Source: Thermoleophilaceae bacterium
GTDB taxonomy: Bacteria; Actinomycetota; Thermoleophilia; Solirubrobacterales; Thermoleophilaceae
Assembly (NCBI GenBank): GCA_036386455.1
Contig: DASVVS010000037.1
Span: forward strand, 15,713-79,712
DNA: 64,000 nt
Direction: 5' to 3'
Shown: piece by piece, positions 4,072 to 43,966 of the stretch
Layout of the letters: every line of letters starts with the position of its first letter
Position numbering within the stretch: the stretch's first letter is position 1
Translations under genes and position numbers: made by a program
Notes under the pieces: model-generated
Told to the model about the DNA's origin: nothing
What the model saw: the letters and a program-made list of their open reading frames with translations, nothing else
Databases searched by the model: none

Positions 4072-5589
4072 ATGCCCGACCAGTCGGCGCCCGCCCCGGA
4101 TCGAGCGGCGATCGAGGAGCGCATCGCCCTCGGCGACCGCAGCCTCCGCGAGCACACGGCGCGCGGCACGATCATCAACGCGGCGTTCAGCGTCGGACTC
4201 GCCGGCCTCGGGCTGCTCCGGCAGCTCATCATCGCGGCGCTCCTGACCGCGTCGGAGTTCGGCCTCTGGGGCGTCATCTTCTTCTCAGCCACGGCGCTGA
4301 TCTTCCTGCTCGACGTCGGGCTGAGCGACAAGTTCGTGCAGCAGGCCGAGCGCGACCAGGAGGCCGCGTTCCAGAAGGCGTTCACGATCAACCTCGTCTG
4401 GCGGCTGGGGTTCTTCCTGATTTCCCTCGCGACCCTGCCGCTCTTCGCCGAGCTGTACGGCCGGCCCGAGATCGTCGTCCCCGGCATGGTCCTGTCGCTC
4501 GCGGTGATCGGGTCCGCGCTTCAGTCGCCGCTATGGATCTTCTATCGCGAGATGCGGTTCGCGCGCCAGCGCGCGCTGCACTCGATCGATCCGGTCGTGG
4601 GGCTCGTGGTAACGGCGATCCTGGGCGCCGCCGGCGCGGGCTACTGGAGTCTGATCATCGGGGGCGTGGTGGGTATCTGGGCCTCCGGCATCGTCGCGCT
4701 CGTCGCTTGCCCGTACCCGCTGCGCTGGCGGTTCGAGCGGCGGCTGTTCGGCGAGTACTTCTCGTTCTCGTGGCCGATCGTGCTCGCGTCGGCGAGCGGG
4801 GTGGCGATGGTCCAGCTGGCGATCATCGTCGGAGAGGACACGGTCGGGCTCGCCGGCATCGGGGCGATCGGCCTCGCGGCGCAGGTCGGGCGCTTCGCCG
4901 AGCGCGTGGACCAGATCGTGACCCAGACCGTGTACCCGGCGATCTGCGCGGTGCGTGACAGGACCGACCTCCTGTTCGAGGCGTTCGTGAAGTCGAACCG
5001 GCTGGCACTGATGTGGGGCATGCCGTTCGGCCTCGCGCTCGTCCTGTTCGCGCCCGACCTGGTGGAGTACGTGTTCGGGGCGAAGTGGGACATCGCGGTG
5101 GGCCTGCTCCAGCTCTTCGGCGCGATGGCGGCGCTGTCGCAGATCGCCTTCAACTGGATGGCGTTCTTCCTCGCGACCGGCAACACGAAGCCGCTCGCGG
5201 TGAACCTCGGGCTGCAGCTCGTCACGTTCGCGGCCGTTGCAGTGCCGCTGATGTTCAGCGACGGCCTGACGGGCTATGGGATCGGGATGGCGTGCGTGCT
5301 GATCGTGGACCTGTGCGTGCGCGCGTACTTCCTGACGCGGCTCTTCTCGGGCTTCCAGATGCTGCGCCACACCGTCCGCGCGATCGCCCCGAGCGTTCCG
5401 GCGGTGGCCGCGGTGCTGGCGATGCGGCTCGTCGAGGGCGGGGGAGAGCGCACGCTCGGGCTGGCCGTCGCGGAGCTCGTGCTGTACGCCGCGGTCACCG
5501 TCGTGGCGACCTGGCTGACCGAGCGTGCGCTGATCCGCGAGGTGCTCGGCTACCTGCGCGGACGGGCCAAGACGCCGCAGCCCGCTTGA
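4072..5589 (+). CDS. Wzx-like oligosaccharide flippase (MOP/polysaccharide biosynthesis protein family)
   Basis: 505 aa with about 12-14 hydrophobic helices and typical Wzx/RfbX architecture. Starts 28 nt after the LPXTG gene stop. Confidence 0.8.
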   Translation: MPDQSAPAPDRAAIEERIALGDRSLREHTARGTIINAAFSVGLAGLGLLRQLIIAALLTASEFGLWGVIFFSATALIFLLDVGLSDKFVQQAERDQEAAFQKAFTINLVWRLGFFLISLATLPLFAELYGRPEIVVPGMVLSLAVIGSALQSPLWIFYREMRFARQRALHSIDPVVGLVVTAILGAAGAGYWSLIIGGVVGIWASGIVALVACPYPLRWRFERRLFGEYFSFSWPIVLASASGVAMVQLAIIVGEDTVGLAGIGAIGLAAQVGRFAERVDQIVTQTVYPAICAVRDRTDLLFEAFVKSNRLALMWGMPFGLALVLFAPDLVEYVFGAKWDIAVGLLQLFGAMAALSQIAFNWMAFFLATGNTKPLAVNLGLQLVTFAAVAVPLMFSDGLTGYGIGMACVLIVDLCVRAYFLTRLFSGFQMLRHTVRAIAPSVPAVAAVLAMRLVEGGGERTLGLAVAELVLYAAVTVVATWLTERALIREVLGYLRGRAKTPQPA

Positions 5590-5611
5590 CGCGTATGTAG
5601 GATCGCGCGCC

Positions 5612-6346
5612 GTGTCATCTCCAACAGAGAACAAGGACCTCGCGGCCGAGGTCGAGCGCTATCCCTGGTACCACACGCTCGAGCTCGGGGACGGCGTGGT
5701 CACGAAGGGGATGTTCGACCACCGTCCGGTGCTCGACCGCTACCCGCTGCCCGACGACCTGAGCGGCAAGCGCTGCCTCGACGTGGCCACGATGGACGGC
5801 TACTGGGCGTTCGAGATGGAGCGCCGCGGGGCGGAGTCGGTCACCGCGATCGACATCGACAGCCCCGAGGACCTCGACTGGCCCGCGTCGCTGCGCGCCG
5901 ACCACGACAAGCAGATGGACGAGACCAAGGCGACCCGGTTCGCGCTCGCGAAGGAGGCGCTCGGCTCGAAGGTGGAGCGCGTGATCCTGTCGGCGTACGA
6001 CCTCTCGCCCGAGCGGCTCGGCACCTTCGACTTCGTCTTCTGCGGCGACCTGCTCCTCCACCTCAAGGACCCGATCACGCCCGTGGAGAACATCAGGAGC
6101 GTCTGCACGGAGAGCGCCGTGATCGTGAACGTGATCAAGAAGTTCCGCTTCCGCGAGGATCATCCGATGGCGGATCTCGACGGGATCGACACGTTCACCT
6201 GGTGGACGACGAACCTCACCGGGCTCGTCCGGATCGTGCGGGCGGCGGGCTTCGCGCGGGTGGAGCCGTCGGAGACCTTCGAGCTGCCCTACAGGGGCGG
6301 CGGCGACTGGCGCGGCCTGCGCGGCGCCGTCCGCGCTTACGTCTAG
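5612..6346 (+). CDS. Class I SAM-dependent methyltransferase (DUF1698/CmoB-like)
   Basis: 244 aa. YPWYHTLELGDGVVTKG... then CLDVATMDGYWAFEMERRGA (motif I-like). GTG start. Confidence 0.75.
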   Translation: MSSPTENKDLAAEVERYPWYHTLELGDGVVTKGMFDHRPVLDRYPLPDDLSGKRCLDVATMDGYWAFEMERRGAESVTAIDIDSPEDLDWPASLRADHDKQMDETKATRFALAKEALGSKVERVILSAYDLSPERLGTFDFVFCGDLLLHLKDPITPVENIRSVCTESAVIVNVIKKFRFREDHPMADLDGIDTFTWWTTNLTGLVRIVRAAGFARVEPSETFELPYRGGGDWRGLRGAVRAYV

Positions 6347-7389: not shown

Positions 7390-7953
7390 TCACCCCCCGC
7401 AATAGATCTTTACGTGCCCGTCCGCGTCATCGGGCGCGACGACGCTCGCCTCGACCGCGAGCCAGCGCCAGACGGCCGCGCGCGGGTCGTCGCCGGGGAC
7501 CACGAGGGTGGTGGGCGGCGCGATCGCGGCCTCCCAGAAGCGCAGCCGCAGACGGCGCTCGGCGAGGGCCTCGCGGCGAGGCGGCTCGACCGGGGTGAAG
7601 ACGAGAGGCGGCGTGGCGCGTCCTGCCGCCGCTCGCGCGGCCGCCGCGGCGTCCTGCGGCGAGAAGGCGTGCACGGCGTCGTAGCCGCCGCGCGCGAGCT
7701 CGCGCACGAGCGCCGGCAGGTGCGTGACCGGTCCGTCGAAGCCGCGCGAGCGCAGCGGGCCCTCGGGCAGGCGGCCCAGGTGCACGACCTCGATGCCGTC
7801 CTCGTCGCTCCGGCGCGTGGGCCCCGGGCGCGAGCCGATCACGCGCGGCTCGTGGCCGGCGGCGCGCAGCGCCCGTGCAAGCTCCCGCACGTGCGGTTCC
7901 GCGGCGCCGCCATACGGCGTGCCGTAACTGTGGTGGACGAGCGCGACCCTCAC
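7390..7953 (-). CDS. Stand-alone glycosyltransferase family 4 N-terminal-domain protein (truncated or split GT4?)
   Basis: 187 aa from an internal GTG (GTGA overlap with the upstream GT2 stop). VRVALVHHSYGTPYGGAAEPHVRELARALRAAGHEPRVI... is a GT4 N-domain pattern. No C-terminal Glycos_transf_1/EX7E half. Confidence 0.55.
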   Translation of the reverse strand: MRVALVHHSYGTPYGGAAEPHVRELARALRAAGHEPRVIGSRPGPTRRSDEDGIEVVHLGRLPEGPLRSRGFDGPVTHLPALVRELARGGYDAVHAFSPQDAAAAARAAAGRATPPLVFTPVEPPRREALAERRLRLRFWEAAIAPPTTLVVPGDDPRAAVWRWLAVEASVVAPDDADGHVKIYCGG

Positions 7954-8969
7954 AGGAGCAGCGTCCGGTGCGTCACGCTCCCGGCCGCCATCCCCGCCAC
8001 CTCGGCGAACTGCCGCACGAACGCGCCCGGAAGCTCGGCCAGCGCGATCGCGCGCGACTTGGCCCCGGGCCCGCGGCGGCCGGCCACGCGCACGGCGTAC
8101 GGCGCCGCCAGCGCGAGCAGAGCCCGGTTGCGGCGCGCGCCCGCGAGCCCGGCGGCGGCGAGCGTGACCATCAGGTGCTCGGGGTCCCAGAACACGCCGA
8201 GCGTCAGCTCGCGCCGGAACTCGGGGTGGCGCTTGACGAGGTAGGCGAGGTAGCGCCACTTCAGGTTCTGCTTGAGGATCCCCGGCAGCGGGTGCGACTC
8301 GACCGCGTGGTACACGAGCGCGTCGGGCGCCGCCGCAAACCGCGCGCCCGCGGCCCGCGCCCGCAGCGACAGCCCGACGTCCTCGCCCGCCACCGCCGCC
8401 TCGTCGAAGCCTTCGAGGCGCTCGAGCAGCGCCCGCGGGTAGAGGATGTTCGCGGTCTGGGCGTACGGGTTGACCGGGTCGACCTCCAGCGTGCGCACGT
8501 GCGGAGCGAGGAACACCATCCACTCGAACGGGTCGGGCCTCACGCGGCCCTGGACCACGGCGCCCTCGGAGGACTCCGCCGCGCGCAGCATGCCCTCGAG
8601 CCAGCCGGGATCGGCGCGGCAGTCGTCGTCGGTGAACGCCACGAGCGGCGCGCGCGCCGCGCGCCAGCCGATGTTGCGCTGCCGCGCCGGGCTGCCCGTG
8701 CCCGGCTCGATCGCGTGGTGGCGGAGCGTGCCGCTCTCGCCCAGCGGGTGGCGCTCCATCACGCGCGCCGCGGTCGCCGCGTCGTAGTCGTGCACCACGA
8801 TCAGCTCCCAGCGCTCGCGCGCGAGCGTCTGCTCCTCGAGCGCGTTCAGGAGCCAGCGCAGCCGCAGCGCCCGGGCGTGCGAGGCGACGACGACGCTGAC
8901 GGCGGGCGGCTCGGTCACGCGGCGGAACCATATATTCGCCGCCGTGCGGCTCCTGACGGTCGGCAACAT
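7950..8969 (-). CDS. Glycosyltransferase family 2
   Basis: VSVVVASHARA...ELIVVHDYD...ARQRNIGW...FTDDDC...GEDVGLSLR is a GT-A/GT2 pattern. The track start at 8969 overlaps the divergent gene start at 8944. An alternative GTG at 8918 (VTEPPAVSVVV) is more likely. Confidence 0.8.
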   Translation of the reverse strand: MLPTVRSRTAANIWFRRVTEPPAVSVVVASHARALRLRWLLNALEEQTLARERWELIVVHDYDAATAARVMERHPLGESGTLRHHAIEPGTGSPARQRNIGWRAARAPLVAFTDDDCRADPGWLEGMLRAAESSEGAVVQGRVRPDPFEWMVFLAPHVRTLEVDPVNPYAQTANILYPRALLERLEGFDEAAVAGEDVGLSLRARAAGARFAAAPDALVYHAVESHPLPGILKQNLKWRYLAYLVKRHPEFRRELTLGVFWDPEHLMVTLAAAGLAGARRNRALLALAAPYAVRVAGRRGPGAKSRAIALAELPGAFVRQFAEVAGMAAGSVTHRTLLL

Positions 8970-11574: not shown

Positions 11575-12497
11575 GCGACCCGGCGCTGTCGGTCGTCATC
11601 CCGACGCACGGCCGCGCCGAGCTGCTCGCGCGCGTGATCCGGTACCTCGAGCGCGAGCGCGACGCGCCCGAGTTCGAGCTGATCGTCGTCACGGACGCCC
11701 GGGCAGAGAAGGTGGACGCGGTCCGCGCGGCGGTCCAGGGCAGCCGGCTCGACGCGCGCCTGCTGGCGGCCGCGCGCCCCGGCGCCTCCGCCGCCCGCAA
11801 CGTCGGCTGGCGCGCGGCGCGGGCGCCGATCGTGCTGTTCATCGGCGACGACACGCTGCCCGAGGGCCACCTGCTCGCGGGCCACATGGAGTGGCACGAG
11901 CGCCATCCCGAGGAGGCGGTGGCCGTCCTCGGACGCGTGCGCTGGGCCGACGAGATCGAGGTCACGCCGTTCATGCGCTGGCTCGACGCCGGCATCCAGT
12001 TCGACTTCGCGAACATCGAGGGGACCGACGTCGGCTGGGGTCGCTTCTACACCGCCAACTCGTCGATCAAGCGCTCGCTCATCGAACGCGTGGACGGCTT
12101 CGACGAGGAGCGCCTGCCGTTCCTGTACGAGGACCTGGACCTCGCCTACCGGCTCCAGCCGTTCGGCTTCCGGCTGCTCTACAACCGCGAGGCGTCGGTC
12201 GAGCACGTGCATCCCGTGACGGTCGAGGAGTGGAAGGGGCGCGCGGCCGCCGTGGCCGCCGCCGAGCGCGAGTTCGTCCGCCTGCATCCGGACGTGCCGC
12301 CGTACTTCTACAACCTCTTCTCGGAGGCGGCGAGAATGCCGCCCGCTCGCGGCCGCGGCGTGAAGCTCGCGCGCTGGGTGCCGCGCGGGGCCCCGGTGAT
12401 CGGGAAGCGCGTCTGGCATCTTGCGGACGTAGCGTGGCGCCAGGCCCTCGCCGAGCCCTTCCTCGCGGAGTGGGAGAACGACGAGGCGGTGGCGTGA
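11571..12497 (+). CDS. Glycosyltransferase family 2
   Basis: 308 aa. LSVVIPTHGRAELL...ELIVVTDA...ARNVGW...FIGDDT...YEDLDLAYR. GTGA overlaps on both sides. Confidence 0.88.
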   Translation: MSDPALSVVIPTHGRAELLARVIRYLERERDAPEFELIVVTDARAEKVDAVRAAVQGSRLDARLLAAARPGASAARNVGWRAARAPIVLFIGDDTLPEGHLLAGHMEWHERHPEEAVAVLGRVRWADEIEVTPFMRWLDAGIQFDFANIEGTDVGWGRFYTANSSIKRSLIERVDGFDEERLPFLYEDLDLAYRLQPFGFRLLYNREASVEHVHPVTVEEWKGRAAAVAAAEREFVRLHPDVPPYFYNLFSEAARMPPARGRGVKLARWVPRGAPVIGKRVWHLADVAWRQALAEPFLAEWENDEAVA

Positions 12498-14047
12498 GCG
12501 AACGCGCCGAACGCCTCGCCGGCGCGACGCTGGCGGTGCTCGCCTCGCTCGCGGTCGTCTACGTCGCCTGGAAGCTGCGCGACGACCACGTCGGCGACGC
12601 CACGATCTACCTCGCCTACGCGGAGAACGCGGGCGAGGGGCGCCCGTTCCAGTTCAACGAGGGCGAGTTCTCCTCGGGCAGCACGTCGCCGCTCTGGTCG
12701 CTGATCCTGGGGGTGCCGTATGCGTTCGGCGGCGGGATCGGCGCCGCGAAGGTCCTGGCGGCGCTGTTCGCCGTGGGGGCGGTGCTGGCCGTCTTCCACG
12801 CGGCGCGCGAGATCAGCGGGTCGTGGCTCGCCGCCGGCGCCGCGACGCTGTTCGTGCCGGGCGCGATGACCTTCTATCCCGTCTCGCTCTACGAGTCGGG
12901 CCTGATCGTGGCGCTGAGCGCTCTGTCGCTCGTGGCGATGAGCCGCGTCTACGCGTGCTGGCGCGACGAGGGCGAGCTGGCGCTGCGCACGGCGCTGCCG
13001 CTGGTCGCGATCTGGGCGGCGCTGCCGCTGTCGCGGCCGGACGCCGTCCTCCTCGTGGCGGCCGAGGCGGTCGCGCTGCTGGCCTTCGCGCCGGTACCGC
13101 GCGGCGCGGCGCTGCGCGCGCTCGTGCCCCTCGCCGCGCTTGCGACGCTGCCGTCGGTCGCCTACTTCGGCTACTCGATCGCCGCGACGGGCACCGCGTC
13201 CACGTCGTCGGACGCCCGCTCCTACGCGCTCCAGGAGGTCGCCAGGGAGTTCGTGGGGCCGCTCTACCGCAACGCCGACGCGCTGCGCGAGGTGGTCGGC
13301 AGCCCGTGGATCTTCTCGCTGCTGCCGGCCCTCGCGGGGCTCTTGCTGCTGGCGCGGCGGGCGGACGCGCGCTGGCTTGCCGCCCACGGCGCGCTTTCGA
13401 TCGCGGGCTATCTGTTCCTACTCACGTTCGTCGCCCCGGGCTTTTACGACTCGCCGCGCTACCTGCTGCCGGTCGTGCCGATCGTCGTGTGCGCGGTCGC
13501 CTACCTGCTCGCCCGGGCGAGCGGCGGCGCGCTGCGGGCCGCGGCGCTCGCCGCGGCCGTCCTCGTGATCGGCCTCGCCACGGCCGACCGGCTGAACGAC
13601 GACCTGGACCTGATCGCGGGCTTCGGGATCGACGAGCGCGAGGTGTTCTCCAAGGAGCCGGTGGCAGTCGTGAACCGGATGGCGCGACCCGGCGACGTGC
13701 TGCTCTCCTACGAGGTGCAGCTTCGCCTGTTCCTGCGCGACGACGTGAAGGTCTTGAGCCAGGACGGAATCATCGACGGCGAGGTGCGCGAGTACCAGGA
13801 GAGCCGCGACATGACCGGGTTTCTGCGCGAGCAGCGCCCGGACTGGTGGATCGCCGACCAGAACGTCAACACGCGGCCATACCTGCGCGGCAGCGTGCTC
13901 GAGCGGGTCTTCGACGCGTTCAAGGCCGACCCGACGCTGCGCTCGCGCTCGTACGAGGGGATCCGCTTCGAACTCGTGAAGCGGCGCAGGCGACCCCTGC
14001 AGCCGGGCTTCGGGGGCTGGCAGATGCTCTTCCGGGTCAGCTATTAA
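12494..14047 (+). CDS. Polytopic membrane protein, GT-C-like (ArnT/PMT-type) glycosyltransferase candidate
   Basis: 517 aa from an internal GTG (12494) of ORF 11549..14047. Roughly 10 hydrophobic helices followed by a soluble domain of about 130 aa. Assignment is by architecture only. Confidence 0.55.
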   Translation: MSERAERLAGATLAVLASLAVVYVAWKLRDDHVGDATIYLAYAENAGEGRPFQFNEGEFSSGSTSPLWSLILGVPYAFGGGIGAAKVLAALFAVGAVLAVFHAAREISGSWLAAGAATLFVPGAMTFYPVSLYESGLIVALSALSLVAMSRVYACWRDEGELALRTALPLVAIWAALPLSRPDAVLLVAAEAVALLAFAPVPRGAALRALVPLAALATLPSVAYFGYSIAATGTASTSSDARSYALQEVAREFVGPLYRNADALREVVGSPWIFSLLPALAGLLLLARRADARWLAAHGALSIAGYLFLLTFVAPGFYDSPRYLLPVVPIVVCAVAYLLARASGGALRAAALAAAVLVIGLATADRLNDDLDLIAGFGIDEREVFSKEPVAVVNRMARPGDVLLSYEVQLRLFLRDDVKVLSQDGIIDGEVREYQESRDMTGFLREQRPDWWIADQNVNTRPYLRGSVLERVFDAFKADPTLRSRSYEGIRFELVKRRRRPLQPGFGGWQMLFRVSY

Positions 14048-17090: not shown

Positions 17091-17116
17091 CGACGCCGCC
17101 CGCGCCGCCCGTCTAC

Positions 17117-34798: not shown

Positions 34799-36225
34799 CC
34801 GCCCGCCGGCTCCTGCCCGCGCTGCTGGCGGCCGTTCCGCTCGCGGCGCTGATGGCCCTGATCGTGAGCCGCGGCGCGCCGGACGGCGCCGAGGACGGAT
34901 TCGAGCTCCTCGCCGCCGCGATCATCGCGGTGTGCGTCGGCGCCGCGGCGCTGGTGGCGCCGCCGTCCTGGGCCGTGAGCGGCGCCCTCGTGCTGACCCT
35001 CTTCCAGAGCCACTGGGATGCGCTCGGGGTCTCGTTCAGCGTCGACCGCTACGTGATGCTGCTCGTGATCGGCTCGGTCCTCGTACGCGAGTGGAGGCAT
35101 CGCGACGGCCGCCTGGCGACCCGGCCCGTCGACTGGCTCCTGGCGGTCACCCTGATCTACGCCGCCACGTCGGCGTGGGTGGTCGGCGAGCTGTCCACCG
35201 AAGACGGTCGCTTCGAGCTGCTCGACCGGTTCGGCGTGATGCCGTTCGTCCTGTTCTTCCTGGCGCCGCTCGTGTTCCGCACCGAGCGCGACCGGCGCGT
35301 GCTGCTCGGCACCCTCGTGGCCATCGGGACCTACCTCGGCATCACGGCGATCCTCGAGACGACCGGACCGAAGGGTGTGATCGTGCCGAGCTACATCACC
35401 GACCCGGCGCAGGGGATCCATCAGGACCGCGCGCGCGGTCCATTTCTCGACGCGGGCGCGAACGGACTGGCGCTGTACATGTGCGCGGTCGCGTCGACGA
35501 TCGCGTTCACGAAGTGGCGGAACCCGCGCTGGCGGATCTTCGCGCTCCTCGTGGCCGGGCTCTGCCTGGTGGGAGTTCTGCTCACGCTCACCCGGGCGGT
35601 GTGGCTGGGCGCGCTCGTGGCCACGCCGGTCGCGCTGCTCTCCGCCCGCGGGGCGCGCCGCTTCCTCGTGCCCGGGATGCTCGCGGGGCTCGTGCTGATC
35701 GTCGCCGCGTTCGCCATGATCCCCGGCCTTCAGGATCGCGCCGAGCGCCGGCGCGGCGACAAGCAGCCGGTCTGGGACCGCCAGAACTCCAACTCAGCGG
35801 CGATCCGGATGCTCGAGGACCGGCCGCTCTTCGGCTTCGGCTGGTCGCGCTTCAAGGAGGAGAGCCCGCCCTACTACCGGCAGTCGAACGACTTCCCGCT
35901 GGGGGAGACGGGCAACCTCCACAACGTCTACCTGTCGAACGCGGTGGATCTGGGCCTCGTCGGCCTGGCGCTGTGGATCGCGGCGCTGCTGGCCGCGCTC
36001 GGCGGCGCGATCGTGCGCCGGGGACCGCCGGAGCTCGTCGCGTGGAAGGTCGGGCTGCTGGCCGTGACGCTGAGCGTGCTGATCACGTGGGCGACGGCGC
36101 CGGCGCTCTTCGTGCTGCCGACGCTGCTGCTCTGGCTGTGGGCGGGCATCGCGTGGGGACCGCGCACGCCGTCAGAGGGCGCTGTAGACGACCGCCACGC
36201 AGCCCGCGAGTTGAAGCACGCATAG
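34795..36225 (+). CDS. O-antigen ligase/polymerase-like (Wzy_C domain) membrane protein
   Basis: 476 aa with about 11 TM helices. ...LLTLTRAVWLGALVA... and the loop ...FGFGWSRFKEES...GNLHNVYLSNAVDLGLVG are typical of Wzy/WaaL-family proteins. GTGA overlap with wzz-like. Confidence 0.8.
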   Translation: MTARRLLPALLAAVPLAALMALIVSRGAPDGAEDGFELLAAAIIAVCVGAAALVAPPSWAVSGALVLTLFQSHWDALGVSFSVDRYVMLLVIGSVLVREWRHRDGRLATRPVDWLLAVTLIYAATSAWVVGELSTEDGRFELLDRFGVMPFVLFFLAPLVFRTERDRRVLLGTLVAIGTYLGITAILETTGPKGVIVPSYITDPAQGIHQDRARGPFLDAGANGLALYMCAVASTIAFTKWRNPRWRIFALLVAGLCLVGVLLTLTRAVWLGALVATPVALLSARGARRFLVPGMLAGLVLIVAAFAMIPGLQDRAERRRGDKQPVWDRQNSNSAAIRMLEDRPLFGFGWSRFKEESPPYYRQSNDFPLGETGNLHNVYLSNAVDLGLVGLALWIAALLAALGGAIVRRGPPELVAWKVGLLAVTLSVLITWATAPALFVLPTLLLWLWAGIAWGPRTPSEGAVDDRHAARELKHA

Positions 36226-37473
36226 GGCGCCGAGCCCGACGGTCGCGCGGCGGCGGTCGAGGCCCGCGAGGGCGGCGAGCAGCGCGAGGCAGGCGATCAC
36301 CGGCGGCTCGAAGTAGCGCTGGTAGGTGCGGACCGTCCCCGCCTGGGCGATCGCGACCGAGGCGATCGCGACCAGCACGACGGCGGCCGGGCGCTGCATC
36401 GCGTTGCGCGCCGCGGCGCGCCAGAGGACCACGAGCAGCGCCGCGCCCAGCCCGGCGAGGATCGCGATCGTGAGCGAGCGGTCGGCGACCGCCGGGGTGT
36501 CGCGCACGATCGACCACAGCCCGCCGCCGGTACGCCGCTCGGCCGTGGCGTCGTGCGAGGTCGGGACGGCGAGCGCCAGCAGCGCCCCCGCCGCGGCGGC
36601 CCCCGCCAGCGCCCGCCGCTCGCGCAGGTCCTCGCGCGTGGCCACGCAGGCCGCGAAGAACGGCGCGAAGAGCCCGGCGAGCGCGAGCGTGAACGGCACC
36701 GCCGCGGGGCTCGTGCCGCTCTGCCCGGCGGCGATCGGCGGCGTGAGCTGGCCCCACAGGGAGGCGAAGGCGGCGAGCATCGCGATCGCGGGGATCACCG
36801 CCACGCCAGCGAGCACGAGCGGGCGGAGGCTCGGGCGACGCTCCGCCGGGCCGCCGCCGGGCTCCTCGCGGAGGCCGGGGATCCAACGCCCGGCGACGGC
36901 CGCCGCGAACACGAGCGGCCCCGCCGCCCAGAGCGCGAGCTGCCGGACGGAGGCGCCGAGCAGCACCCAGAGGCCGCCGAGGAACAGGCCGCGCCCCGTC
37001 TCGGCCACCGTCAGGGCCGCCCCGAGCGTGAGCAGGATGAACAGCATCGCCGTGTTGTCGGTGTTCAGCCACGCGGCCGACTGGAGCACGTAGTGCGACA
37101 GCAGGAGCGGCAGCGTGAGGAACAGGCCCGGCCAGCGCCCGGCGTAGCGCCGGATCAGCCTGTAGGCGACGAGGATCATCGCGAGCGAGAAGAGCGCGGC
37201 GAAGGCCTCCACCGCGGCGCGGTCGTCGCTCACGAGCCGGACGAACACCGCGGTGACCAGGTGCAGGCCCGGGGTGGTGGCGGTGTGGATGTTCTCGAGG
37301 TCCGGCGAGGGCAGGTCGGCGGCCAGCTCGACCACGGTGCGCCCGTGGTAGACCCGCTCGTCCTCGTAGCCGGCGGTGCCGGTGCCGCCCGCGGCGATCA
37401 CCGGTGCGACGAGGGCGACGAACAGAGCGGTCAGCAGCAGCTCCGGGGCTCGGCCGGCCAGGATCGCTCGCAC
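36172..37473 (-). CDS. Polytopic membrane protein, GT-C-like candidate
   Basis: 433 aa from the internal GTG 37473 of ORF 36172..37974. About 11 hydrophobic helices. Architecture only. Confidence 0.5.
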   Translation of the reverse strand: MRAILAGRAPELLLTALFVALVAPVIAAGGTGTAGYEDERVYHGRTVVELAADLPSPDLENIHTATTPGLHLVTAVFVRLVSDDRAAVEAFAALFSLAMILVAYRLIRRYAGRWPGLFLTLPLLLSHYVLQSAAWLNTDNTAMLFILLTLGAALTVAETGRGLFLGGLWVLLGASVRQLALWAAGPLVFAAAVAGRWIPGLREEPGGGPAERRPSLRPLVLAGVAVIPAIAMLAAFASLWGQLTPPIAAGQSGTSPAAVPFTLALAGLFAPFFAACVATREDLRERRALAGAAAAGALLALAVPTSHDATAERRTGGGLWSIVRDTPAVADRSLTIAILAGLGAALLVVLWRAAARNAMQRPAAVVLVAIASVAIAQAGTVRTYQRYFEPPVIACLALLAALAGLDRRRATVGLGALCVLQLAGCVAVVYSAL

Positions 37474-37513: not shown

Positions 37514-38689
37514 ATGACGAGGCCACCGGCAGCCGGTCGGGTCGACGCGGCGCTCGCGGTCCCCGCCGGCCTGCTCGCCGCCGCCGCGGCGCACCAGCTC
37601 GGGCTGCTCGCCGCCGCGGCCACGCTCGGGCGCCGGCGGCACGCGGCGCCCGGCGCGGCGATCCGCTTCGCGATCCTGATCCCGGCCCACGACGAGGCCG
37701 CGACGATCGGCCCCACGCTCGCCGCGATGGAGCCGCTCGGCGCCGAGCGGATAGTCGTGGCCGACAACTGCACCGACGCGACCGCGGCCGTCGCGGCCGG
37801 CGCGGGCGCCACGGTCTGGGAGCGCCACGACCCCGAGCGGCGCGGCAAGGGCCACGCGCTCAGGTGGGGGCTCGAGCGCCTGCTGCGCGAGCGCGCGGGG
37901 GTCGAGGCGGTGGTGGTGATCGACGCCGACTGCCGCCCGTCCGCGAACCTGCTCGACGCGGTGGGCGCCGCCATCCGCGCCGGCGCCGCAGCGGTGCAGG
38001 TGGACTACGTCGTGGCGGATGCGGACAGCTCGCCCGCCGCGGCCCTGCGCGCCGCCGCGTTCGCGCTGATGAACCACGTGCGCCCGCGCGGCCGGACCGC
38101 GCTCGGGCTGTCGGCCGGGCTGCTCGGCACCGGCATGGCGTTCAGAGCCGACCTGCTGCGGCGGGTGCCCTGGCGCTCGTACGGGCTGGCCGAGGACGCC
38201 GAGCACCACCTGCGCCTGGTCGAGGCGGGCGAGCGGGTCGCCTTCGTGCCGGAGGCGAGCGTGCGCTCGCCGATGCCGGCGACGCTCGCCGCCAGCGAGT
38301 CCCAGCAGATGCGCTGGGAGGGCGGCCGGCTGCGGCTCGCGCGGCGCGGCGCGGCGCTCGTGGCGCGGGGCCTCGCGCGGCGCGACCCGGTCGCCGTGCA
38401 GGCCGGGCTCGACCCGCTGCTGCCGCCGCAGTCGGTGCTCGGCGCGGGATCGGCCGCCCTCGCCGCCGCCGGGGCGGGGCTGAGGCTGCGTCGCACGGCC
38501 GTGCTGGGCTCCGCGAGCCTCGCGATGCAGGCCGCGTACGTGCTCGGCGGGCTCGCGCTCACGCGTGCGCCGGCGGCCGCGTGGCTGGCGCTCCTGCGCG
38601 CACCCCTGCTCGTCGCGTTCAAGCTGCGCGTCTACGCGAGGGCGCTGCGCGGGGGGAGCCCGGACGAGTGGGTCCGCACGGAGCGCTGA
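37514..38689 (+). CDS. Membrane-associated glycosyltransferase family 2 (Glyco_tranf_2_3-like)
   Basis: 391 aa from the internal ATG 37514. FAILIPAHDEAATIGPTL...VVADNCTDAT...KGHAL...VIDADC...LAEDAEHHLRL...QQMRWEGG, with C-terminal TM helices. Confidence 0.85.
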   Translation: MTRPPAAGRVDAALAVPAGLLAAAAAHQLGLLAAAATLGRRRHAAPGAAIRFAILIPAHDEAATIGPTLAAMEPLGAERIVVADNCTDATAAVAAGAGATVWERHDPERRGKGHALRWGLERLLRERAGVEAVVVIDADCRPSANLLDAVGAAIRAGAAAVQVDYVVADADSSPAAALRAAAFALMNHVRPRGRTALGLSAGLLGTGMAFRADLLRRVPWRSYGLAEDAEHHLRLVEAGERVAFVPEASVRSPMPATLAASESQQMRWEGGRLRLARRGAALVARGLARRDPVAVQAGLDPLLPPQSVLGAGSAALAAAGAGLRLRRTAVLGSASLAMQAAYVLGGLALTRAPAAAWLALLRAPLLVAFKLRVYARALRGGSPDEWVRTER

Positions 38690-39128: not shown

Positions 39129-40937
39129 GTGTGCGGGATAGCCGGGTGCGTCGCCGCGCCCGGGCGCGAGCCCGATCGCGAGGCGCTCCGCCGGATGGCG
39201 GCCGCGCTCGCGCACCGCGGCCCCGACGACGAGGGGATCGCCGTCGACGGGCAGGTCGGGCTTGTGCAGCGCCGGCTCGCGATCGTGGACCCGTCGCCCG
39301 CGGGGCACGCGCCGATGGAGGACGCGGGCGGGCGCTGGCTCGTCACCTACAACGGCGAGGTCTTCAACCACCTCGAGCTGCGCGCCGAGCTGCCCTGGGT
39401 CCGCTGGCGCGGGGGTAGCGACACCGAGACGCTCGTCGAGGCGCTCGCGCACTGGGACGAGGCGGCGGTGCCGCGCTGCAACGGGCTGTTCGCCTGGGCG
39501 GCGCTCGACCGCGAGCGGCGGCGGCTCGTGCTGGTCCGCGACCGCTTCGGGGTGAAGCCGCTGTACATGGCCCGGCACGCGGGGGCGCTCTGGTTCGCGA
39601 GCGAGATGCGCGCGCTGCTCGAGGCCGGCGTGGCGCGCGACGTCCGGCGCGACGTGCTCGCCCACGCGGTGGAGCGCGGCTGGGCGAACGGCCGGCGCAC
39701 GCCGCTCGCGGCCGTCGAGCGCGTGATGCCGGGGACGCTCGTGGAGGTGGACCTCGAGACGCTCGCGACGGCCGAGCGCACCTGGTACGACCCGCTCGAG
39801 ACGGTGGGCGGGGGCTCCGGCTCCGCCCCCGATCCGCGGCTCCTCGAGGACGCACTCCGCGGGGCCGTGCGCCGCCGCCTGATGGCCGACGTCCCGCTCG
39901 GGACGATGTGCTCGGGCGGGCTCGACTCGAGCCTGATCACGGCGCTGGCGGCGGAGGCCGGCACCGTGCACGCGTTCAACGCGCGGATCGTGGACCAGCC
40001 CGAGTGGGACGAGGGCCGCTGGGCGCGCGAGGTGGCCGAGCACGTGGGGGTCGAGCTGCACACCGTCGAGATGACCGCGGCCGAGTGGCGCGCCGGGCTC
40101 GTGGACGTGGTCCGCCACGTCGAGTATCCGCTCACCCACGAGAGCTCGGTGCCGATGGCGGCGATCGCCCGGCTGGCCCGCGAGCGCGGCGTCAAGGTGC
40201 TGCTGAGCGGCGAGGGCGCGGACGAGCTGTTCGGCGGCTACTCGTGGGTCCACCACCACGCGTCCGCGGACTTCGCCGCGCGCCGCCGGCCCGCGGCGGC
40301 GGCGGCGCGGGCCGCGCTGCGGGCGGCGCAGCGGCGCGGCGTGCTGGCCGGCCGCGCGATCCCCGACCCGTTCCCCGGCCCCTCGGACGAGGTGAACGCG
40401 TACGAGCGCGAGCGCTTCGGGGCGGCCCTGGCCGCCTACGCGCACCACCGCGGCCCGCGCCGGCGCCTGGAGGCCGGGCTGGCGGCCGATCTCTCGACCT
40501 ACCTCCCGCACCTGCTCAACCGCCAGGACAAGACGACGATGATGCACTCGGTCGAGACGCGGGTGCCGTTCCTCGACCCGGAGGTGGTGGCGCTGGCCCT
40601 GAACATGCCGCTCGAGCACCGGGTCGAGCCCGAGCGCAAGGCGCCGTTGCGCGCGCTGGGCCGGGGGCTCCTGCCGGCGAGCGTCGTCGCGCGCGAGAAG
40701 GTGGGCTTCGGCTTCGACGTCGGCCGCTACCTGGGCGGCGCCGTGCGCGAGGAGTTCATGCGCGGCGGGCGCCTGCGCGAGGAGCTGGGCGTGGCGCGCG
40801 CGGAGTGGGATCCGCGCGTGGGGGAGCTGTGCGCGAGCCTCGCCCCGCTGACGGCGGAGATCTGGCTGCGGACCGTCGCCGGCGGCGAGTTGCCAGACGC
40901 CGTGCAGGCGGAGCTGTGGGCCCCGGCGCGCCCGTAG
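39129..40937 (+). CDS. Asparagine synthase (glutamine-hydrolysing)-type amidotransferase
   Basis: 602 aa. N-terminal MCGIAG (Cys2 nucleophile), ...YNGEVFNH.EL..., and the PP-loop-like MCSGGLDSSLI. By context it may amidate a sugar acid rather than Asp. Confidence 0.88.
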   Translation: MCGIAGCVAAPGREPDREALRRMAAALAHRGPDDEGIAVDGQVGLVQRRLAIVDPSPAGHAPMEDAGGRWLVTYNGEVFNHLELRAELPWVRWRGGSDTETLVEALAHWDEAAVPRCNGLFAWAALDRERRRLVLVRDRFGVKPLYMARHAGALWFASEMRALLEAGVARDVRRDVLAHAVERGWANGRRTPLAAVERVMPGTLVEVDLETLATAERTWYDPLETVGGGSGSAPDPRLLEDALRGAVRRRLMADVPLGTMCSGGLDSSLITALAAEAGTVHAFNARIVDQPEWDEGRWAREVAEHVGVELHTVEMTAAEWRAGLVDVVRHVEYPLTHESSVPMAAIARLARERGVKVLLSGEGADELFGGYSWVHHHASADFAARRRPAAAAARAALRAAQRRGVLAGRAIPDPFPGPSDEVNAYERERFGAALAAYAHHRGPRRRLEAGLAADLSTYLPHLLNRQDKTTMMHSVETRVPFLDPEVVALALNMPLEHRVEPERKAPLRALGRGLLPASVVAREKVGFGFDVGRYLGGAVREEFMRGGRLREELGVARAEWDPRVGELCASLAPLTAEIWLRTVAGGELPDAVQAELWAPARP

Positions 40938-40948
40938 AATCACCGAAC

Positions 40949-41899
40949 GTGGCGGAGGGACTCGACACGGTTGCGCCGCCGGCGGCCTCCCAGCAGCGCG
41001 CTGCCACCTTCGAGGGCACCTGGCGCGGGACGCTCCCCGGCGGGATCTTCCGCGCGCTGCGGCCCAAGCAGTGGCTGAAGAACGTGCTCGTGGCCGCGGC
41101 GCCGGGCGCGGCGGGCGTGCTCACCGATGCCGGCGTGCTGCTCGACGTGGCTCTCGCGTTCGTCGCCTTCTGCATGGTCTCGAGCGCGACCTACCTCGTG
41201 AACGACGCGCGCGACGTGGAGGCCGACCGCCTGCACCCGCGCAAGCGCTTCCGCGCGATCGCCGCGGGGACCGTGTCGGTGCGGCTCGCGCTCGCGCTCG
41301 CGCTGCTGCTGCTGCTGGGCGGCTTCGCCGTGGCGGCCGTGGTCCGGATCGAGCTGCTGGTCGTGGTCGCCTCCTACGTGACCCTCACGACCGCCTACAC
41401 GCTCTGGCTCAAGCACGTCGAGGTGGTCGACATCGTGGCCATCGCGTCGGGCTTCATCCTGCGCGCGGTGGCGGGCGGCGCCGCGGTCGACGTGCCGCTG
41501 TCGCGCTGGTTCATCATCGTCGCCTCGTTCGGCTCGCTCTTCATCGTCGCCGGCAAGCGCCACGGCGAGCACATCGACCTCGACGAGTCGCGCGGGGCGA
41601 TCCGCTCCACGCTCGCGGGCTACTCGCGCGACTACCTCAAGTACGTGTGGACGATGGCCTCCGGCGTGACGATCGCCGCCTACTGCCTGTGGGCGTTCGA
41701 GATGGCGCCGCGCGACAGCGAGGTGCCGCTCTACGAGCTGTCGATCGTCCCGTTCGTGACGTTCATGCTGCGCTACGCGCAGCTCCTCGAGGCCGGTCAC
41801 GGCGAGGCGCCGGAGGACGTCGTGCTGGGCGACCGCCTGCTGCAGGCGCTCGCCGCCGTCTGGATCGCGCTGTTCGGAGCGGGTGTCTACTTCCTCTGA
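40949..41899 (+). CDS. Decaprenyl-phosphate phosphoribosyltransferase (UbiA-family DPPR synthase, Rv3806c-like)
   Basis: 316 aa from the internal GTG 40949 of ORF 39908..41899. [12 protein letters not shown]...[26 protein letters not shown]... (UbiA NDxxD motif). About 8 TM helices. Adjacent to dprE1/dprE2. Confidence 0.85.
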
Positions 41900-43211
41900 A
41901 GCCCTGCTCACCGGCTGGGGCCTGACCGCGCCTTCGCGAGCGGAGGTGGTGGAGGCCAGCGCCGAGAGCATCGCCGCCACGCTCGCCGACCCCGGCCCGC
42001 GCGGGGTGCTGGCGCGGGGCCTCGGGCGCAGCTACGGCGACGCCGCCCAGAACGCCGGCGGCCGCGTGCTGCTGATGGAGGAGCTGGCGAAGGTGCACGC
42101 GGTGGACCTCGCGAGCGGGATCGTGACCGTGGACGCGGGCGTGAGCATCGAGACGCTCACGCGCACGCTGCTGCCGCTCGGGCTGTTCGTGCACGTGACG
42201 CCGGGCACCTGGTTCGTGACCGTGGGCGGCGCGATCGCGGCGGACGTGCACGGCAAGAACCACCACGCCGACGGCTCGTTCTGCGACCACGTGCTCGCGT
42301 TCGACCTGATGACCCCGGACGGCGAGGTCAGGACGGTGGAGCCGGGCGACGAGCTGTTCGGCGCGACCGCCGGCGGCATGGGCCTGACCGGCGTGATCCT
42401 GCGGGCCACGCTCAGGATGCTGAAGGTCGCGTCGCCGAACATGGTCGTGGATCGCGAGCGCTGCGCCGACCTCGACGACGTGATGGCGCGCATGGCCGCG
42501 CGCGACGACGAGTACCGCTACTCCGTGGCGTGGATCGACTGCCTCGCGCGCGGCCGGAACATGGGCCGCTCGGTCCTGATCCGCGGCGACCACGCGCCCG
42601 AGGCCGGGTCCAACGGGCACTTCGGCGGGCTGCGGATCAGCGCCCCGCCGTTCGTGCCGGGCGGCCTGCTCAACCGCACGACGCTCCGCGCCTTCAACGA
42701 GGCCTACTACCGCGCCGCGCCCAAGCGCGAGACCGGGCGCCGCGAGGGGGTGCGCGAGTTCTTCTACCCGCTCGACGCGGTGGGGAGTTGGAACCGCATC
42801 TACGGGCCGAGCGGCTTCCTCCAGTACCAGCTCGTGGTGCCGTACGGGCGCGAGGACGCCCTCCGCGAGTCGCTCGAGCGCCTCTCCGGCGCGGGCGCGC
42901 CGTCGTTCCTCGCGGTGCTCAAGCGCTTCGGCGCGCAGCGGACCGGCATGATCTCGTTCCCGATGGAGGGCTGGACGCTCGCACTCGACATCCCGGCGAC
43001 CGTGCCGGGGCTCGCGCCGCTGCTCGACGGCCTCGACGAGGTCGTGGCCGAGGCCGGCGGCCGCGTGTACCTGGCCAAGGACTCGCGCCTGCGCCCGGAC
43101 GTGCTCGCCTCGATGTACGGGCGGCTCGGCGAGTGGCGCGCCGCGCGCGAGCGGGTCGACCCCGGCGGCGTGATGCGCTCGGACCTGGCGCGGCGGCTGG
43201 AGCTCGTATGA
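41883..43211 (+). CDS. dprE1: Decaprenylphosphoryl-beta-D-ribose 2'-oxidase (FAD)
   Basis: 442 aa. [14 protein letters not shown]...[14 protein letters not shown]...[15 protein letters not shown]...YLAKDSR...DLARRLELV. Collinear with my recollection of M. tuberculosis DprE1 to the last residues. Confidence 0.9.
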
Positions 43212-43966
43212 GGGACGCGACCGGGACCGTGCAGTCGGTGCTCGTGCTCGGCGGCACCTCCGAGATCGGCGTGGCGACCGCCAAGCGGCTGGCCCGCGAG
43301 CGGGCGCGGCGCGTGATCCTGGCGGTGCGCGACCCGGGGCGGGCCGAGGGCGCGGCCGCCGAGTTGCGCGAGCTCGGGGCCGAGACCGAGGTCGTGGCCT
43401 TCGACGCGGTCGATATCGGCTCTCACGAGGCGTTCGTGCAGGACGTCTTCGACCGCTTCGGCGACATCGACCTCGTGCTCGTCGCCTGGGGCGTGCTGGG
43501 CGACCAGGAGCGGCTCGCGCGCGACCACGACGCGGCCGTGGAGGCCGCGCAGGTCAACTACACCGGCGTCGTCTCGGTGAGCGTGCCGCTGGCCGAGCGC
43601 ATGAAGCGCCAGGGGCACGGCACGATCGTGTACCTGTCGTCGGTCGCGGGCGAGCGCGCGCGTGCCTCGAACTTCGTCTACGGCTCGACCAAGGCCGGCA
43701 TGGACGCGTTCGCGCAGGGGCTGGGCGACTCGCTCGCAGGCAGCGGCGTGCGCGTGATGGTCGTGCGGCCCGGCTTCGTGAAGACCAAGATGACCGAGGG
43801 GCTCGACCCGGTTCCGCTCTCCACCGACGCCGACGCCGTGGCCGAGTCGATCGCCGCCGGGCTGCGCACGGGCGCGCACACCGTCTGGTCGCCGGGGCCG
43901 CTGCGCTTCGTCATGTCGGCGCTGCGCCACGTGCCGCGGCCGATCTTCCGCCGGCTCGACCTCTAG
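43208..43966 (+). CDS. dprE2: Decaprenylphospho-2'-keto-ribose reductase (SDR)
   Basis: 252 aa from the internal ATG 43208 (ATGA overlap with dprE1). [15 protein letters not shown]...YLSSVAGER...YGSTKAG (SDR Gly motif and YxxxK). Confidence 0.88.

Follow-up and report, generated by a model that had tools for sequence, protein, structure and literature searches.

Glycans that contain D-arabinofuranose (Araf) made from decaprenyl/polyprenyl-phospho-D-arabinofuranose (DPA) are most familiar from the mycobacterial envelope, where they form an essential core that drugs target. Here we describe a locus that combines the genes of this donor pathway with those of Wzx/Wzy-type polysaccharide assembly. 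It lies on a 64,000-nucleotide stretch, hereafter the window, of contig DASVVS010000037.1 from a Thermoleophilaceae bacterium (assembly GCA_036386455.1); its class, Thermoleophilia, is a deep-branching, almost unstudied group of actinobacteria that is abundant in soil. Positions 4072–43966 of the window (about 40 kb) hold 36 tightly packed genes, and we consider it probable that they form a single surface-polysaccharide locus for Araf and galactofuranose (Galf), with Wzx/Wzy assembly and addition of Araf by membrane glycosyltransferases (GTs) of the GT-C fold.

In the Gtr systems of Shigella and Salmonella (GtrA, GtrB and a variable Gtr protein), a serotype-specific GT-C with a polyprenyl-monophosphate sugar as its donor glucosylates a Wzx/Wzy polymer on the outer side of the membrane. 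The locus described here resembles them in the proposed extracytoplasmic GT-C modification of a Wzx/Wzy-built polymer and in modules that vary between strains. It differs in the donor, which in Gtr is undecaprenyl-phosphate-glucose made by a GT2 enzyme and here would be a pentofuranose derived from phosphoribosyl pyrophosphate (PRPP). Moreover, the Gtr GT-C is encoded on a prophage, whereas the present GT-C genes lie in the main locus; no GtrA-like flippase was found in the window.

Kelly et al. (PNAS, 2024) proposed the extracytoplasmic addition of pentofuranoses to surface glycans by GT-Cs as a general principle (PMC11127046). Three components make up their system, which is established by experiment in some cases and predicted in others: a polyprenyl-phosphoribose synthase that depends on PRPP, a flippase, and a GT-C of family GT136, joined by DprE1/DprE2 homologs where the sugar is Araf; its prototype is Citrobacter youngae O1/O2, and the predicted examples include the actinobacterium Rathayibacter (PMC11127046). 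The present locus shares with these systems a UbiA-type synthase, a predicted lipid-linked pentofuranose from PRPP, the placing of the genes inside a polysaccharide locus, auxiliary epimerases that set the sugar (DprE1/DprE2 homologs for Araf) and a GT-C that would act on the exported glycan. On the other hand, the prototypes are ABC-transporter-dependent O antigens, whereas this locus is of the Wzx/Wzy type with a polysaccharide co-polymerase (PCP). Its synthase lacks a HAD phosphatase domain, the window has no gene for a small MATE or SMR flippase, four to five unrelated GT-Cs take the place of one, and Galf supply is encoded in the same locus.

With the arabinogalactan and lipoarabinomannan systems of the Mycobacteriales, the locus has in common an orthologous donor pathway (242–348 bits; DprE2, 235 bits), the UDP-galactopyranose mutase Glf and one GT-C that is structurally closest to AftB. 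Unlike them, it has in the window no homologs of Emb, AftA, AftD, Rv3807c or Rv3789 and none at the level of GlfT1 or GlfT2, a Wzx/Wzy-type backbone route instead of a synthase with Wzm-Wzt, Ala for Cys387 in DprE1, and a host in Thermoleophilia. A first-pass annotation, made by a model from the letters of the window, had stated that mycobacterial arabinogalactan is assembled without Wzy. This is correct, the galactan being exported by the ABC transporter Wzm-Wzt (PMC13649706). Outside Actinomycetota, the D-Araf system of Pseudomonas aeruginosa group IV pilins (PsPA7_6245-6249 and TfpW) likewise has homologs of UbiA, DprE1 and DprE2 that feed a GT-C. However, that system modifies pilin with an oligomer of alpha-1,5-Araf, its donor genes are not linked to the GT-C gene, and there is no Wzx/Wzy/PCP set. 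The combination of DPA with Wzx/Wzy genes in our locus is real and conserved in relatives. Since Gtr glucosylation already shows GT-C modification of Wzy-built polymers, it extends the pentofuranose principle of 2024 and is not a new category.

At about 74% G+C, raw open reading frames (ORFs) of the window are mostly spurious overlapping frames, and a filter on third-position G+C over whole ORFs is too noisy. Genes were taken from a codon-usage dynamic-programming caller trained on the window, which gave 61 tightly packed genes in the whole stretch. All 61 proteins were scanned against Pfam and NCBIfam, with NCBIfam equivalog cut-offs as thresholds. The scans reproduced the inventory of the first-pass annotation almost gene for gene and, together with conserved synteny, bore out its view that DPA and Galf donor genes sit in a Wzx/Wzy/Wzz context. 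Clustering of these genes is far above chance, because the best domain E-values in the locus go down to 1e-161 and the synteny recurs in several independent contigs. The genes for assembly, export and donor synthesis are the following.

4072–5589, plus strand: Wzx-type MOP flippase, 505 residues with about 14 transmembrane segments (Polysacc_synt_3, E 1.5e-36)
32049–33662, plus strand: WbaP/WcaJ-type initiating polyprenyl-phosphate hexose-1-phosphate transferase (Bac_transf, E 9e-66; TIGR03025, 350 bits against a cut-off of 296)
33800–34798, plus strand: Wzz-like PCP without a kinase domain, transmembrane segments at residues 80–98 and 301–319
34795–36225, plus strand: Wzy_C-domain protein, taken as the repeat-unit polymerase (PF04932, E 3e-19; about 13 transmembrane segments)
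23721–24854, minus strand: Glf, UDP-galactopyranose mutase (PF03275, E 2e-71; TIGR00031, 347 bits against 304)
40949–41899, plus strand: UbiA, polyprenyl-phosphate 5-phosphoribosyltransferase, ortholog of Rv3806c (NF008978, 377 bits against 207)
41946–43211, plus strand: DprE1 ortholog, polyprenyl-phosphate-ribose 2'-oxidase (NF053785, 538 bits against 500)
43208–43966, plus strand: DprE2 ortholog, 2'-keto reductase of the SDR type (NF053786, 350 bits against 250)

The whole window contains one initiating phosphoglycosyltransferase (PGT), one Wzx, one PCP and one Wzy_C protein, that is, a single complete set. An ortholog of Wzx occupies the equivalent position in a relative (70% identity, L091; such numbers, L003 or L083 through L117, label compared loci from other contigs and genomes). 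The PCP has the expected topology of two transmembrane segments flanking a large extracytoplasmic domain, and its matches are weak and sub-threshold (TIGR01006, E 5e-8; EpsF; XrtA chain-length determinant). In L093, the gene at this position encodes Wzz and GNVR domains plus a kinase-like domain. The end of the PCP gene overlaps the start of the Wzy_C gene by 4 nt, and the PCP lies upstream of Wzy in every relative. Because of this overlap, we read the Wzy_C protein as a polymerase.

Glf, UbiA, DprE1 and DprE2 all score above their equivalog cut-offs, and alignments of the three DPA enzymes to the Mycobacterium tuberculosis proteins span their full length. UbiA matches Rv3806c (PDB 8J8J) with 242 bits and has the NDxRDxEADR motif; DprE1 matches its counterpart with 348 bits and has HGKNHH and AKDSR (Lys418); DprE2, the gene of which overlaps that of DprE1 by 4 nt, matches with 235 bits (PDB 21gq). 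At the position of M. tuberculosis Cys387, which is the covalent target of benzothiazinones and dispensable for catalysis, DprE1 has Ala; judged from this residue, the enzyme is predicted to be naturally insensitive to benzothiazinones.

Between the assembly and donor genes lie three further genes.

37514–38689, plus strand: GT2g, a membrane-anchored, EpsU-like GT2 (Pfam, NCBIfam), missing from L087 and L083
38721–39116, plus strand: MsrB (SelR, E 6e-52)
39129–40937, plus strand: AsnB-type glutamine amidotransferase with an N-terminal MCG nucleophile (TIGR01536, 404 bits against 267)

The order in the window is WbaP-PCP-Wzy-(GT-C)-GT2g-MsrB-AsnB-UbiA-DprE1-DprE2, and from GT2g onwards the genes are co-directional with gaps of at most 46 nt. 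On a contig of a relative (ENA ERZ27253129, contig k141_61632; L083/L084), one strand carries WbaP-AsnB2-MsrB-AsnB-UbiA-DprE1-DprE2-PCP-Wzy, after which come a convergent GT-C, a GT4, a Wzx and then amidase-hisIE. Another relative (L086) has WbaP-DprE1-DprE2-PCP-Wzy-GT-C-amidase-hisIE. The first-pass annotation had named separate DPA and Wzy pathways as the finding that would speak against its proposal; what is seen is the opposite, DPA genes embedded between WbaP and PCP-Wzy in both relatives. L087 keeps, at 63–98% identity to the window, a block consisting of GT2f with two unassigned ORFs, the 465-residue GT-C with GT4d, WbaP, PCP and Wzy, the 433-residue GT-C and, directly beside it, MsrB. 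Moreover, L117 and L083 come from a single contig of 297 kb, on which a locus of about 44 kb lies between the same flanks as in the window. The left half of this locus (L091/L117) is collinear with window positions 4072–26891 at 52–84% identity, except for swapped modules: L091 has a sulfotransferase for the LuxR-family regulator, a GT87 for the 682-residue GT-C and no counterpart of the insert at 14061–18154. In two genomes, the same flanks enclose both blocks of the locus. This arrangement is typical of a modular, serotype-like surface-polysaccharide locus at a fixed chromosomal site. Since the linkage of the DPA genes survives rearrangement in relatives, it argues for DPA and Wzx/Wzy/PCP/WbaP genes behaving as one unit and serving one pathway.

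Extracytoplasmic transfer from a lipid-linked donor would call on the GT-C proteins, five of which are encoded in the window; they are mutually unrelated by sequence.

12494–14047, plus strand: GT-C of 517 residues, about 10 transmembrane segments and a C-terminal alpha/beta domain, without a Pfam or NCBIfam match
19713–21761, plus strand: probable GT-C of 682 residues, about 14 transmembrane segments (PMT_2/PMT, E 3e-4, under the Pfam gathering score)
29205–30602, plus strand: GT-C of 465 residues (PMT_2, E 2e-14)
36172–37473, minus strand: GT-C of 433 residues, convergent with Wzy (PMT_2, E 1.5e-8)
46076–47449, plus strand: fifth GT-C (DUF2142/PMT_2), 2 kb past the right border, between hisIE and trpD

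When the GT-C candidates were searched against PDB sequences, singly or as profiles, no real match appeared, and the 517-residue protein matched no PDB chain; for this group, information came only from predicted structures compared by Foldseek. An AlphaFold2 model of the 517-residue protein, built from its family alignment (pLDDT 92.3, pTM 0.92), found AftB as its top match (9dlf/9dlh; E 2.6e-7, TM-score 0.56–0.58, 18% identity), followed by DPY19, STT3, ArnT, ALG12, AftA, PglB and Emb. For this protein and the 433-residue one alike, every structural match at E ≤ 0.001 is a GT-C enzyme. Both also show the polytopic fold of that superfamily, in which a conserved acidic residue opens the first extracytoplasmic helix after the first transmembrane segment. 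For AftB, the first juxtamembrane helix has been described as bearing an acidic residue at its tip; the protein also has a DD motif with the catalytic Asp, two phosphate-binding Arg residues and a C-terminal periplasmic domain (PMC12041299). The 517-residue protein shares with it the acidic residue at the helix tip, invariant arginines and a C-terminal extracytoplasmic domain. The residues G34-D35 after its first transmembrane segment are invariant in the family, making the motif GD and not the DD of AftB. Because of this difference and the identity of only 18%, we do not file the protein as a member of the AftB family (GT89); at most, it functions like AftB.

Genes of the 517-residue family stand directly beside UbiA and/or DprE1/DprE2 in 6 of 21 non-window loci (L092, L094, L096, L097, L099 and L107), while one DPA cassette makes up only about 0.1% of a genome. 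L092 has the genes UbiA-DprE1-DprE2-GT-C as an overlapping operon, with a 50% identical homolog in fourth place. The family member directly follows UbiA in L094, L096, L097 and L099, with start and stop overlapping in L094, and is itself followed by DprE2-DprE1 on the opposite strand in L094, L096 and L097. UbiA, GT-C, DprE2, DprE1, Glf and Wzx are strung together in L094 and L097, the latter continuing with Glf and Wzx. Even on a contig of 32% G+C (L107), a member with 27% identity precedes UbiA-DprE1-DprE2. The family comprises 96, 443 and 4441 clusters (at 50% identity) for E ≤ 1e-30, 1e-10 and 1e-3, respectively; distant members retain the motifs GD, RP(E/D), R, RY and YEVQ, and weak matches to GT-C Pfam models are confined to occasional members. 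On gene adjacency, the 517-residue protein is the best candidate for a polyprenyl-phospho-Araf-dependent arabinofuranosyltransferase. We therefore put forward, tentatively and as something short of probable, the fuller proposal that Thermoleophilaceae make a block-polymerised (Wzx/Wzy) Araf/Galf envelope polymer and that this family, new as judged against Pfam, NCBIfam and PDB chains, is a family of polyprenyl-phospho-D-Araf-dependent GT-C arabinofuranosyltransferases.

The remaining GT-Cs are tied to the locus in different ways. The AlphaFold2 model of the 433-residue protein (pLDDT 87, pTM 0.90) has an invariant D38 after the first transmembrane segment and finds ArnT first (E 1e-4). All four of its matches at E ≤ 0.001 are GT-Cs, as are most of the weaker ones, the listed set being ArnT, AglB/STT3, Pmt4, AftA, ALG9, AftB and EmbC. 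The triad of this GT-C, Wzy and PCP is conserved in L083, L085, L086 and L087. The 465-residue GT-C and GT4d are paired in L087 too (68% and 78% identity). The 682-residue protein occupies a variable slot, with a GT87 GT-C at its place in L091, and a homolog with 35% identity adjoins Wzy in L093. As for the DUF2142 protein, relatives have trpE-trpG at its position; it is a possible fifth lipid-donor-dependent transferase whose membership of the system is uncertain.

The other genes of the locus encode cytoplasmic glycosyltransferases and modification enzymes. Together with the four GT-Cs inside its borders, the seven GT2s, four GT4s, a half GT4 and a PssD/PssE fusion bring the glycosyltransferases to 17. 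The LuxR-family regulator, MsrB and two unassigned ORFs are additions to the inventory of the first-pass annotation.

5612–6346, plus strand: methyltransferase 1 (Methyltransf_23/11), 83% identical ortholog in L091
6462–7364, minus strand: LuxR-family regulator (GerE helix-turn-helix), a variable slot taken by a sulfotransferase in L091
7390–7953, minus strand: half GT4, a stand-alone GT4 N-terminal domain of 187 residues (Glyco_trans_4_4, E 8e-16)
7950–8969, minus strand: GT2a, 71% identical ortholog in L091
8944–10155, plus strand: GT4a (Pfam), collinear in L091
10168–11574, plus strand: GT4b (Pfam), collinear in L091
11571–12497, plus strand: GT2b (Pfam), collinear in L091
14061–15278, plus strand: GT4c (Pfam), in the variable insert
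15557–16141, plus strand: Methyltransf_24 methyltransferase (Pfam), in the variable insert
16101–17090, minus strand: GT2c (Pfam), in the variable insert
17117–18154, minus strand: methyltransferase 2 (Pfam), in the variable insert
18356–19066, plus strand: methyltransferase 3, 79% identical ortholog in L091
19139–19693, plus strand: hexapeptide acyltransferase, Pfam match under the gathering score, 74% identical ortholog in L091
21724–22710, plus strand: GT2d (Pfam)
22718–23704, minus strand: methyltransferase 4 (Pfam)
24937–25986, plus strand: GT2e (GT2 Pfam), divergent from glf
25989–26891, minus strand: PssD/PssE (Alg14/13-like) fusion glycosyltransferase (Pfam, NCBIfam), with weak likeness to the glucuronosyltransferase WelK
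26888–27649, minus strand: ORF of 253 residues without assignment (gene call)
27646–27921, minus strand: ORF of 91 residues without assignment or transmembrane segment (gene call)
27918–28964, or to 29021 from an upstream ATG, minus strand: GT2f (Pfam, NCBIfam)
30608–31864, plus strand: GT4d (Pfam), paired with the 465-residue GT-C, the pair being kept in L087

The run GT4a-GT4b-GT2b is translationally coupled to the gene of the 517-residue GT-C. The insert at 14061–18154, missing from the otherwise collinear L091, has a G+C content of 0.691, lower than the 0.729 of the locus and the roughly 0.75 of its flanks, and looks like a horizontally exchanged serotype module. Reading the half GT4 as a pseudogene was rejected, since it has the same length of 187 residues and the same position in L091. 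The pair of Glf and GT2e is kept in L091 at 80% identity each, and by position GT2e is a candidate for the galactofuranosyltransferase; its score against GlfT1 is 26 bits where the cut-off is 330, and its PDB matches are generic GT2 enzymes. Among the GT2s of the window, NCBIfam allowed no assignment of a GlfT or of a GtrB/Ppm-type lipid-sugar synthase. The genes for GT2f, the 91-residue and the 253-residue ORF and the PssD/PssE fusion form an operon in which neighbours overlap by 4 nt, and its first three genes are kept as a block in L087. AsnB stands next to UbiA also in L083, and we infer a role for it in the glycan, possibly in uronic acid amidation. The DPA cassette has MsrB at its side in the window, in L003 and in L083, and in L087 and L093 MsrB is near glycan genes or a GT-C. 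This joint occurrence led us to drop the idea that it marks the boundary between two unrelated loci.

In the mechanism we propose, the WbaP-type transferase would start a repeat unit on polyprenyl phosphate, and cytoplasmic GT2, GT4 and PssDE-type enzymes would extend it from nucleotide sugars, including UDP-Galf supplied by Glf, with GT2e as the likely Galf transferase and methyl- and acyltransferases decorating the unit. Wzx would then flip the unit, and the Wzy_C protein would polymerise it en bloc under the control of the Wzz-like PCP. In parallel, UbiA, DprE1 and DprE2 would turn PRPP and polyprenyl phosphate into polyprenyl-phospho-D-arabinofuranose, a route that presumably includes dephosphorylation and flipping of the donor. 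Lastly, GT-Cs would transfer Araf to the glycan outside the membrane. The 517-residue protein is the first candidate for this step; the GT-C adjacent to Wzy (36172–37473) may also add Araf, and the others may use this or other lipid-linked donors. On our analysis, Araf is more likely a decoration added after flipping than part of the block built in the cytoplasm, because extracytoplasmic pentofuranose addition by GT-Cs has already been proposed as a general principle (PMC11127046). The product would be a methylated, acetylated and amidated Araf/Galf polymer. The observed foundation of this scheme consists of the gene identities, the GT-C folds, the synteny and the linkage of GT-C with DPA genes; product sugars, step order and the choice of the DPA-using GT-C are predicted.

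We also asked how widely the DPA cassette occurs, scanning one genome per GTDB species. At least 591 of these genomes, from different phyla, have a close homolog of DprE1; among them are Streptomyces, Streptosporangiales, Acidimicrobiia, Propionibacteriales, Pseudonocardia, Cyanobium/Synechococcus and Acidobacteria. The first-pass annotation had called Galf plus DPA-derived Araf the hallmark of the arabinogalactan/LAM of the Mycobacteriales; for DPA synthesis at the gene level, a Mycobacteriales hallmark does not hold. Of the 80 best DprE1 loci, 63 also contain DprE2 and 56 contain UbiA, mostly in the order seen in the window. When the window proteins (by tblastn) and hidden Markov models of two GT-C families were compared with 80 DprE1 loci of other orders, no shared neighbours beyond the cassette were detected; by Pfam, 56 polytopic neighbours of the cassettes are heterogeneous (AftD, Emb, PMT_2, acyltransferases, transporters). 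The Wzx/Wzy context of the cassette is lineage-specific, since no Wzx, Wzy or GT-C genes like those of the window stand beside these 80 cassettes. For Thermoleophilia, we found no relevant literature on cell-wall sugars or DPA genes.

Several observations weigh against a single Wzx/Wzy pathway with GT-C addition of Araf. Thirteen Leloir-type transferases and four GT-Cs exceed the needs of one ordinary repeat unit, and when the seven GT2s, Wzx, Wzy and the DUF2142 protein were compared with NCBIfam, none received a family-specific assignment and no GT2 reached a family-specific cut-off. The Wzy_C domain is common to polymerases, ligases and O-oligosaccharyltransferases and does not separate the first of these from the other two. 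The same GT-C families are found in L085, L093 and L095 with no DPA genes within 10 kb, so that these GT-Cs might use another donor. The k141_61632 relative, in which AsnB paralogs flank MsrB, has a second Wzx (51% identical to that of the window), a sign that two substrates may be flipped in that strain. Among the 61 window proteins there is no match for a DPA 5'-phosphatase (Rv3807c PAP2 or HAD), which may be encoded elsewhere in the genome, none for a DPA flippase (Rv3789/GtrA-like, SMR or small MATE), Wzx being the sole MOP protein, and, by Pfam and transmembrane scans, no LCP-type ligase. The DPA route that had been called full is thus represented by UbiA, DprE1 and DprE2, with the phosphatase and flippase genes not found in the window. 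In our view these gaps do not disqualify the model, given that P. aeruginosa has no strict need of its phosphatase or GtrA-like protein for Araf glycosylation, the counterparts being dispensable or partly so (bioRxiv 10.1101/2020.04.19.049825). Some of these points could be explained if the interval were a composite island, in which two or more glycoconjugates, for example a Wzx/Wzy heteropolysaccharide and an independent GT-C/DPA arabinan, lipoglycan or wall polymer, share a hot spot. This would suit the 17 glycosyltransferases, the roughly 10 transcription units on both strands and the modules swapped between relatives, and also the conservation of the left (Wzx to Alg13/14) and right (GT2f to Wzy and DPA) blocks each as a unit. 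In one relative, the second Wzx occurs along with a right block that is compact and looks self-sufficient; a metagenome-assembled genome (MAG AC_37, L003) has MsrB-UbiA-DprE1-DprE2 with no detectable homologs of the window Wzx, Wzy or glycosyltransferases upstream; and in other phyla the DPA cassette does not adjoin Wzx/Wzy. Nevertheless, we hold a composite island to be unlikely. The lone PGT, Wzx, Wzy_C protein and PCP encode a single complete assembly line, and the AftB-like GT-C, coupled to Leloir transferases, lies in the left block while its presumed donor genes lie in the right one, so that the blocks depend on each other. Furthermore, DPA genes stand between WbaP and PCP-Wzy in two relatives, and in two genomes both blocks occur together between the same flanks.

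The ambiguity of the Wzy_C domain also allows a reading in terms of protein or cell-wall glycosylation, with the Wzy_C protein as a ligase or O-oligosaccharyltransferase (PglL/WaaL-like), PMT-like GT-Cs and a target such as the LPXTG-type Gly-rich protein encoded at 3535–4044, which bears a sortase signal, lies 27 nt upstream of Wzx and has a counterpart in L091. The sole NCBIfam match of the Wzy_C protein is a putative O-glycosylation ligase (35 bits), the second-best match of Wzx is an O-glycosylation flippase (83 bits), and three GT-Cs match PMT_2; all these NCBIfam scores, however, are far under their cut-offs, and the PMT_2 model matches GT-Cs generally. Since the Wzz-like PCP overlaps the start of Wzy_C and is conserved with it in every relative, and since its L093 counterpart combines Wzz, GNVR and kinase-like domains typical of polymerising systems, we find such glycosylation quite improbable. 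Still less credible to us is a mycobacterial-style arabinogalactan, that is, a galactofuran made processively in the cytoplasm, exported by the ABC-2 transporter at 1912–3347 and then arabinosylated, with Wzx/Wzy serving another polymer. Glf, the DPA genes, the AftB-like fold and an ABC-2 permease/ATPase pair adjoining the locus would fit it, but this pair shows translational coupling with the lasso-peptide genes (PqqD, HPr-kinase-like, transglutaminase-like) and stays with them in L085. Emb, AftA and AftD, such as flank DPA cassettes elsewhere, are absent from the window, where Pfam gave no match to Arabinose_trans or GT-C_AftD; no GT2 reaches the level of GlfT1 or GlfT2 (GlfT1 matches of at most 26 bits against 330); and WecA/WbbL-type linker genes are missing from the window as well. 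A single Araf/Galf polysaccharide locus with Wzx/Wzy assembly is therefore the reading we retain.

About 10 transcription units on both strands make up the locus, which is flanked by a lasso-peptide operon to the left and by amidase-hisIE to the right. Scans of 31–47.5 kb for sigma-70 promoters and terminators gave nothing above shuffled sequences and tell nothing about where operons begin or end in this organism; tRNA and Rfam searches of the window gave no match. TrpD, TrpC, HisIE and MoxR of the window are 79–87% identical to proteins on contig k141_61632 (L083), the DNA of which matches contigs of the Thermoleophilaceae MAG GCA_036389295.1, and the named homologs of two locus-specific membrane proteins all come from Thermoleophilaceae MAGs (58–68% identity). 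An uncultured member of the Thermoleophilaceae is thus very probably the source; its DprE2 is encoded on an ENA metagenome contig of 134.8 kb. The flanking features are as follows.

200–3347, minus strand: lasso-peptide-type operon of an ABC ATPase, an ABC-2 permease, PqqD (RRE), an HPr-kinase-like protein and a Transglut_core3 protease, with overlapping stops and starts
3535–4044, plus strand: Gly-rich ORF of 169 residues ending in LPFTG, a hydrophobic stretch and RRAARRRTRR, a sortase sorting signal
45431–48113: hisIE, the DUF2142 GT-C (46076–47449), a membrane-anchored ORF of 211 residues and trpD
49993–55586: MoxR AAA ATPase, a protein of 361 residues without assignment, a membrane transglutaminase and an HtrA protease, between trpC and trpF

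The lasso-peptide gene set adjoins a glycan locus also in L085 and L091/L117. In L085, it additionally includes an Asn-synthase-like cyclase and an ORF of 44 residues, a possible precursor; in our contig, the cyclase and precursor genes would fall outside the left edge of the window. The upstream ABC-2 transporter was considered as a Wzm/Wzt exporter and rejected, being translationally coupled to these genes. At the place of the 169-residue LPFTG ORF, 27 nt upstream of Wzx, L091 has an ORF of 138 residues. The product could be a wall-anchored (glyco)protein tied to the locus, and its sorting signal fits a Gram-positive-type wall. On the right, trpE-trpG lie between hisIE and trpD in L083 and beside hisIE in L093, whereas neither gene is present anywhere in the window. 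MoxR and an unassigned protein of 365 residues likewise follow trpC in L083.

Our results leave the understanding of the mycobacterial pathway itself unchanged. What they point to is the same DPA donor pathway wired into an O-antigen- or capsule-style Wzx/Wzy line in Thermoleophilia, and the DPA-associated, unannotated GT-C family is their most useful by-product. If the proposed model is true, it would extend the three-component principle of 2024 to Wzy-dependent polymers and to systems with multiple GT-Cs, and would nominate this family as arabinofuranosyltransferases, of use in metagenome annotation and glycoengineering. It would then qualify as a new family in CAZy and could serve to mark D-arabinosylated glycans in different phyla, from actinobacteria with 74% G+C to an organism with 32%. 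For Thermoleophilia, the model would provide the first genetic picture of the cell surface.

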